Origin: a virus
Strand: one strand, 5' to 3'
Virus record (IMG/VR): IMGVR_UViG_3300009702_000036
Location: 1-45,204 of that record
DNA: 45,204 nt
The first letter of the stretch is position 1; the number at the start of each line of letters is the position of its first letter. Below are positions 4,839 to 5,216 of the stretch, piece after piece. The position numbers and the translations under genes are program-made. Under the pieces are notes generated by a model. The model was not told the DNA's origin. It ran no database searches and saw nothing but the letters and a program-made list of their open reading frames with translations.

Positions 4839-5186
4839 CTACATCGTCCTCTCACCATCAACATTGAGGACATGCTCGATGTGATGTTGTGCAAGAATCT
4901 TTCCAACTGCTCGTGCTGTGGCTGGAGAACGATACTCACCAGCAGAACAACAGATTGCCACTTGGTAGTTTTCCTCTGGAAATAGCTTGTGGTACTGAAT
5001 AACCACATTAGCGATTGCATCTACAATTGCTCTAAATCCTTCCTGTTCATTCATACACTCTTCAGCAGTTTTTCTACCAGCTCGAACTTCTGGATCTCTC
5101 CAAGGATTGACAAGATAGCTGACATCAAAGACAAAGTTTGCTTCTGGTCTACTAAACTTGAATCCATGTGACTTGATAGTATCATG
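4839..5186 (-). CDS. stand-alone RapZ (YhbJ) C-terminal-domain-like protein; 5' end frame-disrupted
   Basis: Frame open 5186->4839. Translation HGFKFSRPEANFVFDVSYLVNPW ... VAICCSAGEYRS matches the RapZ CTD motifs FGFKxGxPxDADxVFDVRFLPNP and GCTGGxHRS. The first in-frame ATG is at 5054; the SD-preceded ATG at 5185 is 1 nt out of frame. Confidence 0.65.
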   Translation of the reverse strand, partial: HDTIKSHGFKFSRPEANFVFDVSYLVNPWRDPEVRAGRKTAEECMNEQEGFRAIVDAIANVVIQYHKLFPEENYQVAICCSAGEYRSPATARAVGKILAQHHIEHVLNVDGERTM

Positions 5187-5216
5187 TTATCCTCCTGTTA
5201 ATTAGCAGGTCATTTC

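Follow-up and report, generated by a model that had tools for sequence, protein, structure and literature searches.

The RapZ C-terminal domain and its stand-alone form

RapZ is well understood only in E. coli, where it is a GlmZ/RNase E adaptor and a sensor of glucosamine-6-phosphate (GlcN6P). Here, we analyze a gene of a tailed phage that encodes the C-terminal domain (CTD) of RapZ as a protein of its own. The gene lies on the minus strand, at positions 4839-5185 of the IMG/VR record IMGVR_UViG_3300009702_000036; the whole stretch of 45,204 nt that was analyzed is called the window below, and the protein and its homologues are referred to as RapZ_C.

In E. coli, the RapZ CTD alone suffices for RNA binding (PMC5737377). 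Residues K170, C247, H190, G249 and R253 are needed for GlmZ binding and cleavage, and a pocket of H190, T248, G249, H252 and R253 binds sulfate, malonate or RNA phosphate and has been proposed as the GlcN6P site (PMC9841335; PMC5737377). The C247S variant was unexpectedly inactive, for which the authors suggested a possible catalytic role of the thiol, and density for a chemically transformed GlcN6P product was reported as well (PMC9841335; PMC5737377). RNA binding was abolished when K270 was mutated together with K281, R282 and K283 (PMC5737377). The same source describes RapZ CTDs as dimerizing and dimerization as required for activity (PMC5737377). For B. subtilis, another report places the RapZ homologue YvcJ in a UDP-N-acetylglucosamine (UDP-GlcNAc)-dependent network (PMC7525490).

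What the phage locus contains is a conserved gene, with its ordinary start, for a RapZ CTD of 115 amino acids (aa) that stands alone. In the window, one base is missing from its second codon, leaving the following reading frames (open reading frame, ORF). We are close to certain of both the domain identity and the single-T deletion.

4839-5185, minus strand: stand-alone RapZ CTD gene, frameshifted allele; with the T restored 348 nt and 115 aa, identical to database protein P0053; stop codon TAG at 4841-4839
5181-5182, minus strand: site of the one-base deletion; ATGA-TACT in the window versus ATGATTACT in near-identical genomes, one T of codon 2 (ATT) being lost
5183-5196, minus strand: true translation start, with the Shine-Dalgarno sequence AGGAGG at 5196-5191 and ATG at 5185-5183; identical Shine-Dalgarno sequence and ATG ahead of the intact orthologues
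5051-5185, minus strand: 44-aa out-of-frame ORF made by the deletion, not a gene; no Pfam or PHROG match
4839-5054, minus strand: 71-aa ORF (P0003) annotated by the source gene caller; C-terminal remnant of the domain, without strands 1-2 and the NPWR motif

The minus-strand translation of 4839-5198 reads TGG, a stop, HDTIKSHGFKFSRPEANFVFDVSYLVNPWRDPEVRAGRK...CCSAGEYRSPATA...ERTM and a final stop. The RapZ_C frame is shut upstream by a TAA (5189-5187) and is open from 5186 to the TAG at 4841-4839, reading HDTIKSHGFKFSRPEANFVFDVSYLVNPWRDPEVR...QVAICCSAGEYRSPATA...GERTM. As stated in the initial annotation of this DNA, its first 44 codons contain no ATG, GTG or TTG, the first methionine being codon 45 (5054-5052). 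The ATG at 5185-5183 begins another frame, and the TGA of that frame (5053-5051) overlaps the ATG at 5054 as ATGA. This overlap had been described accurately, and only the length given for the out-of-frame ORF has to be changed, from 43 to 44 aa.

The initial annotation had also recognized a stand-alone RapZ CTD and had named a profile search and a structural superposition as ways to check it; both support the assignment. In searches with profile hidden Markov models (HMMs), the 115-codon frame matched the RapZ CTD family Pfam PF22740 with E = 8.4e-13 (49 bits versus a cut-off of 27), residues 3-104 being aligned to positions 4-112 of the 121 profile positions, whereas the 71-aa remnant alone stayed under the cut-off with 23.5 bits. 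A profile of the family found the isolated E. coli CTD (5O5S) in the PDB with E = 4e-12, aligned to E. coli residues 163-277. The AlphaFold2 model (predicted local distance difference test, pLDDT, 93.8; predicted template modeling score, pTM, 0.87) was superposed by Foldseek on 5O5S with template modeling (TM) scores of 0.82/0.77, a root-mean-square deviation of 2.4 Å and a probability of 1.00. The 13 best PDB matches were all RapZ, and the next, non-RapZ match had E = 0.47. The fructose-6-phosphate-binding subdomain of 6-phosphofructokinase gave no significant match (E ~3).

The remainder of RapZ is missing, again as initially annotated. No N-terminal P-loop (Walker A/B) kinase-like domain (PF03668) was found in the ORF or upstream of it, where a non-coding RNA and then the thymidylate synthase ThyX stand, and the NCBIfam equivalog for full-length RapZ (NF003828) was matched only at profile positions 163-268, with 40.3 bits versus a cut-off of 244. 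A split gene or intron, in which the RNA would interrupt a longer RapZ, was also considered and rejected, because ThyX terminates upstream, the homologues of 115 aa are already complete and there is no RapZ_N. Shared with the E. coli CTD (PF22740; 5O5S, 5O5O, 8B0I) are the motifs S-x-G-F-K, P, D-V, N-P and C-x-x-G-x-x-R-S, but identity to it is only about 22%, and the phage protein differs from E. coli RapZ in having neither the P-loop domain nor the C-terminal KRK tail. Without the P-loop N-domain, a RapZ-type tetramer is not expected.

Stand-alone versions of the domain are numerous. An HMM search of 1.84 billion representative proteins identified 1,730 proteins at E <= 1e-3, in which full-length RapZ (~285 aa) was mixed with many stand-alone forms of 105-165 aa. 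A few fusions were also seen (P0072, P0121 and P0065 among the representatives), with an FkbM-type methyltransferase, with an HhH-GPD DNA-glycosylase domain, or as tandem RapZ_C, and the domain has thus been reused with partners other than the RapZ P-loop domain. The initial annotation knew of no described phage-encoded version limited to the CTD, but viral versions of this kind are already held in databases. PHROG 18111 (phrog_18111, labelled 'ATPase') is a CTD-only viral version with a full-length match (E = 2.7e-7), and the models of giant-virus entries named 'RapZ C-terminal domain-containing protein' in BFVD/UniProt match at TM scores of 0.55-0.84. Like the window protein, these are CTD-only proteins of viruses, but structural alignments show them to be distant, at 15-22% identity, and they lack a function established by experiment. 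The proteins considered here (MITxKSHGFK ... CCSAGEYRSP) form a tight subfamily, with 51 clusters at 90% identity and conserved neighbors of its own. A literature search found no paper studying CTD-only viral versions of RapZ_C. The CTD-only form is a widespread but unstudied family, a stand-alone variant of a known domain in a new context.

Start of the gene and the one-base deletion

A homologue search covering 5.8 billion proteins identified, besides the window remnant P0003, 51 homologues (P0001-P0052 less P0003) of 115-125 aa and 43-77% identity. Those that were read or aligned begin with M-I-T-(I/L)-K-S-H-G-F-K. The two closest relatives, L001 (77% protein identity) and L002 (67%), have CATGATTACAAT where the window has CATGA-TACTAT, and carry ATGATTAC at the deletion site.

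The 90% identity cluster of the window remnant includes P0053, a protein of 115 aa that is the same as the window frame except for its MIT start. It is encoded on a 45,779-bp contig of the European Nucleotide Archive (L011, L039) and, in the separate run SRR6056608, on a contig of 44,056 bp (L038). The intact gene is thus present in two independent assemblies of essentially the same phage, 99.96-99.98% identical. Pairwise alignment of the window with L011 gave one block of 13.9 kb (99.96% identity) with 4 single-nucleotide polymorphisms (SNPs) and 1 gap, at window position 5182, and a second block of 5.3 kb with 100% identity and no differences. Alignment with L038 extended over 21.8 kb and contained 3 SNPs and the same single gap, which was also found in comparison with L039. 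The L011 sequence at the gap is GATAACATGATTACTATCAAG. Across about 30 kb of unique sequence compared, there is no indel other than the missing T, which argues that the window assembly is not generally prone to indels.

Restoring the T turns ATG AT.ACT of the window into ATG ATT ACT ATC AAG, coding for MITIK. With one T of codon 2 missing, the real frame is left without a start, and gene callers consequently report only the 71-aa C-terminal remnant. Much of this had been anticipated in the initial annotation, which noted the one-nucleotide frame offset and picked out the AGGAGG and ATG that prove to be the true start, the same Shine-Dalgarno sequence and ATG being found before the intact orthologues. 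It had, however, suggested a missing G (ATGGAT, translated as M-D-T-I-K). This repair is excluded by the orthologues and the near-identical genomes L011 and L038, in which the base is a T and the start reads ATG ATT ACT (M-I-T-I-K). Programmed frameshifting or a non-canonical start could likewise be dismissed, as the orthologues have an in-frame ATG ATT/ATA ACN and there is no slippery sequence at AUG AUA CUA. An Rfam match to the frameshift element eiav_FSE (14 bits versus a gathering score of 40, E = 0.72) was noise.

Substitution patterns agree with a single gene extending over both parts of the frame. For the repaired window gene, the ratio of nonsynonymous to synonymous substitution rates (dN/dS, Nei-Gojobori) in codons 1-44 was 0.05 versus L001 and 0.18 versus L002; in codons 45-115 it was 0.10 and 0.29, respectively, and for the whole gene 0.08-0.25. 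Purifying selection thus acts over the whole ORF, and strongly on codons 1-44. The 44-aa alternative frame is not conserved, as it has no start and carries stops in L011, L001 and L002. Taken with the significant profile and fold similarity, this upholds the initial call of a RapZ CTD, to which a conserved upstream ORF and relaxed selection on the first codons would have been contrary.

As the origin of the missing T, a consensus error and a real loss-of-function allele of the strain have about equal odds. A single indel in a run of two Ts is unusual for a short-read consensus; on the other hand, strains that differ at a few positions can ordinarily be expected to differ by an indel as well. 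The frame offset matters for annotation only, in that a conserved 115-aa gene is reported as a 71-aa fragment.

Pocket residues, neighboring genes and possible function

Residue conservation was counted over 52 family sequences aligned to E. coli RapZ (E. coli residues in brackets).

Invariant in 52/52 and shared with E. coli: S6 (S166), G8 (G168), F9 (F169), K10 (K170), P14 (P174), D21 (D182), N27 (N188), P28 (P189), C80 (C247), G83 (G250), R86 (R253), S87 (S254)
Mostly kept: R35 (R196), R or K in 50/52
Fixed or nearly fixed, unlike E. coli: S23 (R184), W29 (H190), C79 (G246), S81 (T248), A82 (G249), E84 (K251), Y85 (H252)
Absent in the family: R238, R268 and the tail K281-R282-K283

Among the replacements, R184 to S and the W29 that stands for H190 were found in 52/52 sequences, and K251 to E and the Y85 that stands for H252 in 51/52. 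T248 to S and G249 to A are conservative exchanges, unlike H190 to W and H252 to Y, which are nevertheless fixed or nearly fixed. K270 aligns to His101 of the window protein, and positions 281-283 are past the protein end in at least 49/52 members.

The segment C80-S-A-G-E-Y-R86-S87 fits the pattern C-x5-R-(S/T) and is invariant save for single-sequence exceptions at positions 82, 84 and 85. According to DSSP, strand 75-80 of the model ends at C80, and helix 86-100 starts at R86. In the model, this loop runs from a strand end to a helix start, as it does in the Cys-x5-Arg phosphatases (protein tyrosine phosphatases, PTP; dual-specificity phosphatases, DSP; low-molecular-weight PTP; ArsC). The overall fold of the phage protein is not PTP-like, however, and no catalytic acid loop was identified in it, so that this is a resemblance and not membership. 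Matches to PTPs were weak and local (Pfam DSPc, E = 0.13; PTPN12 in the PDB, E = 0.28; PTPs by Foldseek, E = 1-3 over about 50 residues), and PTPN22 was also among them. Net charge proved uninformative as a discriminator for RNA binding (median +1 in the family, +2 in RapZ CTDs); the window protein itself has a net charge of -2 and an isoelectric point (pI) of 6.2.

Around the gene, the window encodes a pyrimidine-deoxynucleotide module, which also includes a flavoprotein resembling UDP-galactopyranose mutase (UGM).

1115-4321, minus strand: DnaE-type DNA polymerase III alpha, at the downstream end of the module; with the Pfam domains PHP, DNA_pol3_alpha, finger and HHH_6
5197-5382, minus strand: structured non-coding RNA between thyX and the RapZ_C gene; ~27-bp closing helix around a branched interior
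5383-6183, minus strand: ThyX, flavin-dependent thymidylate synthase; Pfam PF02511, E = 2.9e-31
6167-6583, minus strand: DUF1599 ('nucleotide modification associated domain 1'); Pfam PF07659, 27.8 bits versus a cut-off of 25
6585-7616, minus strand: UGM-like flavoprotein; 343-codon ORF from TTG, 341 aa in database gene calls
7600-8148, minus strand: dCTP deaminase; NCBIfam TIGR02274, 167 bits versus a cut-off of 92.8

The neighborhood was surveyed in 36 loci, and RapZ_C was present in every related phage locus examined. The usual phage order, represented by 13 loci, is dCTP deaminase, a protein of 320-350 aa, RapZ_C, DUF1599 and ThyX, with DnaE further on. The 320-350-aa (UGM-like) gene is present in the sequence and directly upstream of RapZ_C in 11/13 of these loci, with a 4-nt overlap between its end and the beginning of RapZ_C in L017, L020 and L021; the remaining two (L035, L037) are short contigs with only RapZ_C followed by DUF1599. 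In the subclade of the window (window, L011, L038, L001, L002/L003, L016), RapZ_C is shifted to a position between ThyX and DnaE.

For the UGM-like protein, no firm Pfam or NCBIfam assignment was obtained, a few members having a generic FAD/NAD-binding or amine-oxidase Pfam match. Its AlphaFold2 model (pLDDT 93.7) had UGMs as top PDB matches in Foldseek (E = 4e-16 to 3e-13, TM scores of 0.62-0.70), and other flavoproteins with the amine-oxidase fold matched from about 1e-12. Its homologues (P0204-P0323) are phage-restricted proteins of 320-350 aa and, where the region is covered, are encoded between dCTP deaminase and RapZ_C or DUF1599. A search with PADLOC for known anti-phage defence returned no match for RapZ_C, the UGM-like protein, DUF1599 or the two small downstream ORFs. 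Just past the RapZ_C stop, at 4797-4830 (minus strand), lies an imperfect GC-rich hairpin (TTGGCTGGGGAG...CTCCCCATGCCAA), with a T-run ahead of it, that was not called in a simple terminator scan. About 200 nt after the RapZ_C gene of L011 are without a called gene.

RapZ_C homologues of 116-121 aa, 43-48% identical and with the same CCSAGEYRSP motif, were also found on bacterial contigs of up to 109 kb. Their neighbors are GT4 glycosyltransferases, a sugar epimerase/dehydratase and RmlC (L012-L015, L030-L034), and a 351-aa GT4 follows RapZ_C in all six loci with the downstream gene read (L012, L014, L030-L032, L034). In L030, RapZ_C overlaps the end of a phosphoribosyl pyrophosphate (PRPP)-synthetase-like gene by 4 nt. 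Full-length RapZ, in contrast, is found in rpoN-ptsN-npr or yvcK-whiA contexts rather than in a phage nucleotide module or a glycosyltransferase cluster. Four of the bacterial contigs (L012-L015) were binned as Patescibacteria (candidate phyla radiation, CPR), either Zambryskibacteria or Saccharibacteria, and the 0.1-um fraction of Hainich groundwater is the source of several metagenomic relatives. These groundwater samples and the homologues in metagenome-assembled genomes give a weak hint that the phage hosts are Patescibacteria as well.

As the initial annotation pointed out, the gene of the window stands directly downstream of a large structured RNA. The RNA (5197-5382, 186 nt) is a real, unclassified element confined to one small subclade. 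Its minimum free energy is -78.4 kcal/mol (z = -7.5), and the same architecture was found in L001 (1271-1425, z = -7.1) and L002 (2457-2620, z = -4.5). In the three-way alignment, the ~27-bp closing helix is almost wholly kept, and 25/48 predicted pairs show double compensatory changes. The G-U pairs of the RNA are on the gene-sense strand, and an internal loop contains a conserved UAAAGA. Rfam, GlmY and GlmZ included, gave no family at threshold in the window and nothing relevant at E <= 10 in 5100-5480; no further copies were found elsewhere in the window, nor in IMG/VR with a 19-base pattern. The RNA is absent from L016, which has a 78-aa zinc-ribbon-like ORF in its place, and from all more distant loci, phage and bacterial. 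Its absence from L016, 13 other phage-module loci and the bacterial loci means that it is not a family-wide partner of RapZ_C, and the implied link between RNA and gene is weak.

On balance, we consider it probable that the gene encodes a phospho-ligand pocket protein that is frameshifted in this assembly. The intact protein would work through a phosphate-binding pocket that it probably shares with RapZ, comprising Lys10 (K170) and Cys80-x5-Arg86-Ser87 (C247...R253-S254), in which the invariant Trp29 and the nearly invariant Tyr85 would replace H190 and H252. The pocket may bind, and possibly chemically process, a phosphorylated sugar or a uridine-nucleotide or nucleotide-sugar ligand, and in phages RapZ_C could act together with the UGM-like flavoprotein inside the module of dCTP deaminase, DUF1599, ThyX and DnaE. 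Such a role in sugar or nucleotide metabolism, read from conservation and gene context, is plausible but falls a little short of an even chance. It fits the links of RapZ to GlcN6P in E. coli and to a UDP-GlcNAc-dependent network in B. subtilis (PMC7525490). The domain-only version keeps the K and C-x5-R-S residues of the pocket, with the essential cysteine, invariant and has lost several residues of the RNA path, and it stands beside two independent sets of sugar and nucleotide neighbors, the UGM-like flavoprotein in phages and glycosyltransferase clusters in bacteria. Its minimal form, invariant pocket residues and two neighbor sets make it a tractable 13-kDa model for asking whether RapZ_C is a metabolite-binding or catalytic module. 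The family also draws attention to an uncharacterized, phage-specific flavoprotein partner.

Several observations weigh against this proposal. The gene neighborhood is only circumstantial for a ligand role. In E. coli RapZ the pocket contacts the RNA backbone, so that its conservation is compatible with RNA binding; R196 is also kept (R or K in 50/52), and the net charge medians given above do not separate the family from RapZ CTDs. The UGM-like call is based on a predicted structure with 12-14% identity and TM scores of 0.62-0.70, and the E-values of other flavoprotein folds are worse by no more than 3-4 orders of magnitude. In the window subclade, RapZ_C is away from the UGM-like gene and behind the structured RNA, and the likeness to C-x5-R phosphatases is local only (E ~1, about 50 residues). 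We give little weight to a bolder version, in which stand-alone RapZ_C would be a cysteine-dependent enzyme or covalent ligand sensor, acting with its C-x5-R pocket on a phospho-sugar or uridine nucleotide-sugar and forming a two-protein unit with the phage-specific UGM-like flavoenzyme. If it were true, the unit might, for example, produce an unusual sugar or nucleotide, or attach one, so as to modify DNA or the envelope in phages that infect ultrasmall (CPR) bacteria, and it would expose an ancestral, RNA-independent function of the RapZ CTD, as hinted by the inactivity of E. coli C247S.

The same pocket could instead serve RNA binding, with the CTD-only protein recognizing the 186-nt element or host small RNAs and acting as an adaptor, decoy or sequestrator that redirects host RNase E/RapZ-type regulation. 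The E. coli CTD alone does bind RNA (PMC5737377), three residues that GlmZ binding requires (K170, C247 and R253) are invariant, R196 is kept, and a very stable, covarying RNA lies immediately upstream in the window, L001 and L002. However, this RNA is missing from L016, from 13 other phage-module loci and from all bacterial loci; residues of the RNA path are changed to neutral or acidic ones (R184 to S in 52/52, K251 to E in 51/52) or missing (R238, R268, K281-R282-K283); the window protein is negatively charged (-2, pI 6.2); the N-domain that builds the tetramer is absent; and no GlmY, GlmZ or other Rfam family was matched in the window. Hence, RNA binding of this kind seems improbable to us, and a GlmZ-type RNase E adaptor role is unlikely. 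The frame offset itself might be the first step of loss of a gene that has become dispensable in this lineage. The homologous frame indeed has no usable start for 44 codons, the deletion is the only indel in about 30 kb of an assembly that is not generally indel-prone, and with 4 SNPs versus L011 and 3 versus L038 one real indel is plausible. Yet the protein is otherwise 100% identical to the intact P0053 and has no further lesions, purifying selection in the family is strong (whole-gene dN/dS 0.08-0.25), and none of the related phage loci examined lacks the gene. This would be compatible at most with a very recent null allele in one strain, a consensus error also being possible, and we doubt that the lineage as a whole is losing the gene. 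Interference with host RapZ is highly improbable. Here, the free CTD would heterodimerize with host RapZ CTDs or compete for their partners and thereby derail envelope-precursor control during infection, in line with the shared predicted fold and with the dimerization of RapZ CTDs that is needed for activity (PMC5737377). Identity to the E. coli CTD is only about 22%, though, its nearest relatives in cells are not full-length RapZ but stand alone themselves, in glycosyltransferase clusters, and the strict conservation of the pocket and the linkage to the flavoenzyme gene (4-nt overlap in three loci) point to an intrinsic biochemical role.

The phage genome and its relatives

The window carries an exact direct terminal repeat of 123 bp (positions 1-123 and 45082-45204), indicating that the phage genome, of about 45.1 kb, is circularly closed or complete, and L011 and L038, the near-identical contigs, are circularly permuted relative to it. 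Among its products are a large terminase, portal or adaptor proteins and a tail protein. Overall GC content is about 39%. The coding strand flips near 15 kb, from minus (1-15 kb; replication and nucleotide metabolism) to plus (15-45 kb; packaging, head and tail), and the GC skew changes sign at about the same position.

No relative at the DNA level was found among GenBank phages by blastn with the window, and tblastn returned only 8 distant matches with 25-32% identity, the only annotated one being in Microcystis phage MaAM05. This match is a full-length RapZ beside a YvcK-like gene and not a stand-alone domain. In the 256-267 kb region of the 274-kb record (MW495066.1, L022), a YvcK-like 'gluconeogenesis factor' comes after the full-length RapZ-like gene, and panB, panC and pxpA are close by. 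The rapZ/yvcK/panB/panC/pxpA region resembles an ordinary bacterial chromosome, and the record may therefore contain bacterial DNA. Searches of GTDB genomes with DnaE and with a profile of the UGM-like protein identified no relatives. The DnaE of the window is 33-34% identical to that of the nearest isolates, which are Microbacterium phages.

A low-complexity region at 13433-13961 (13247-14365 in its wider extent), in a minus-strand ORF region with a raised GC content of 0.425, consists of GCA/GCT-rich tandem repeats with periods of 12-57 nt. It is the sole region of noticeable divergence between the window and L011 (98.3% identity, 5 gaps), which is what repeats of varying length or an ambiguous assembly would be expected to produce.

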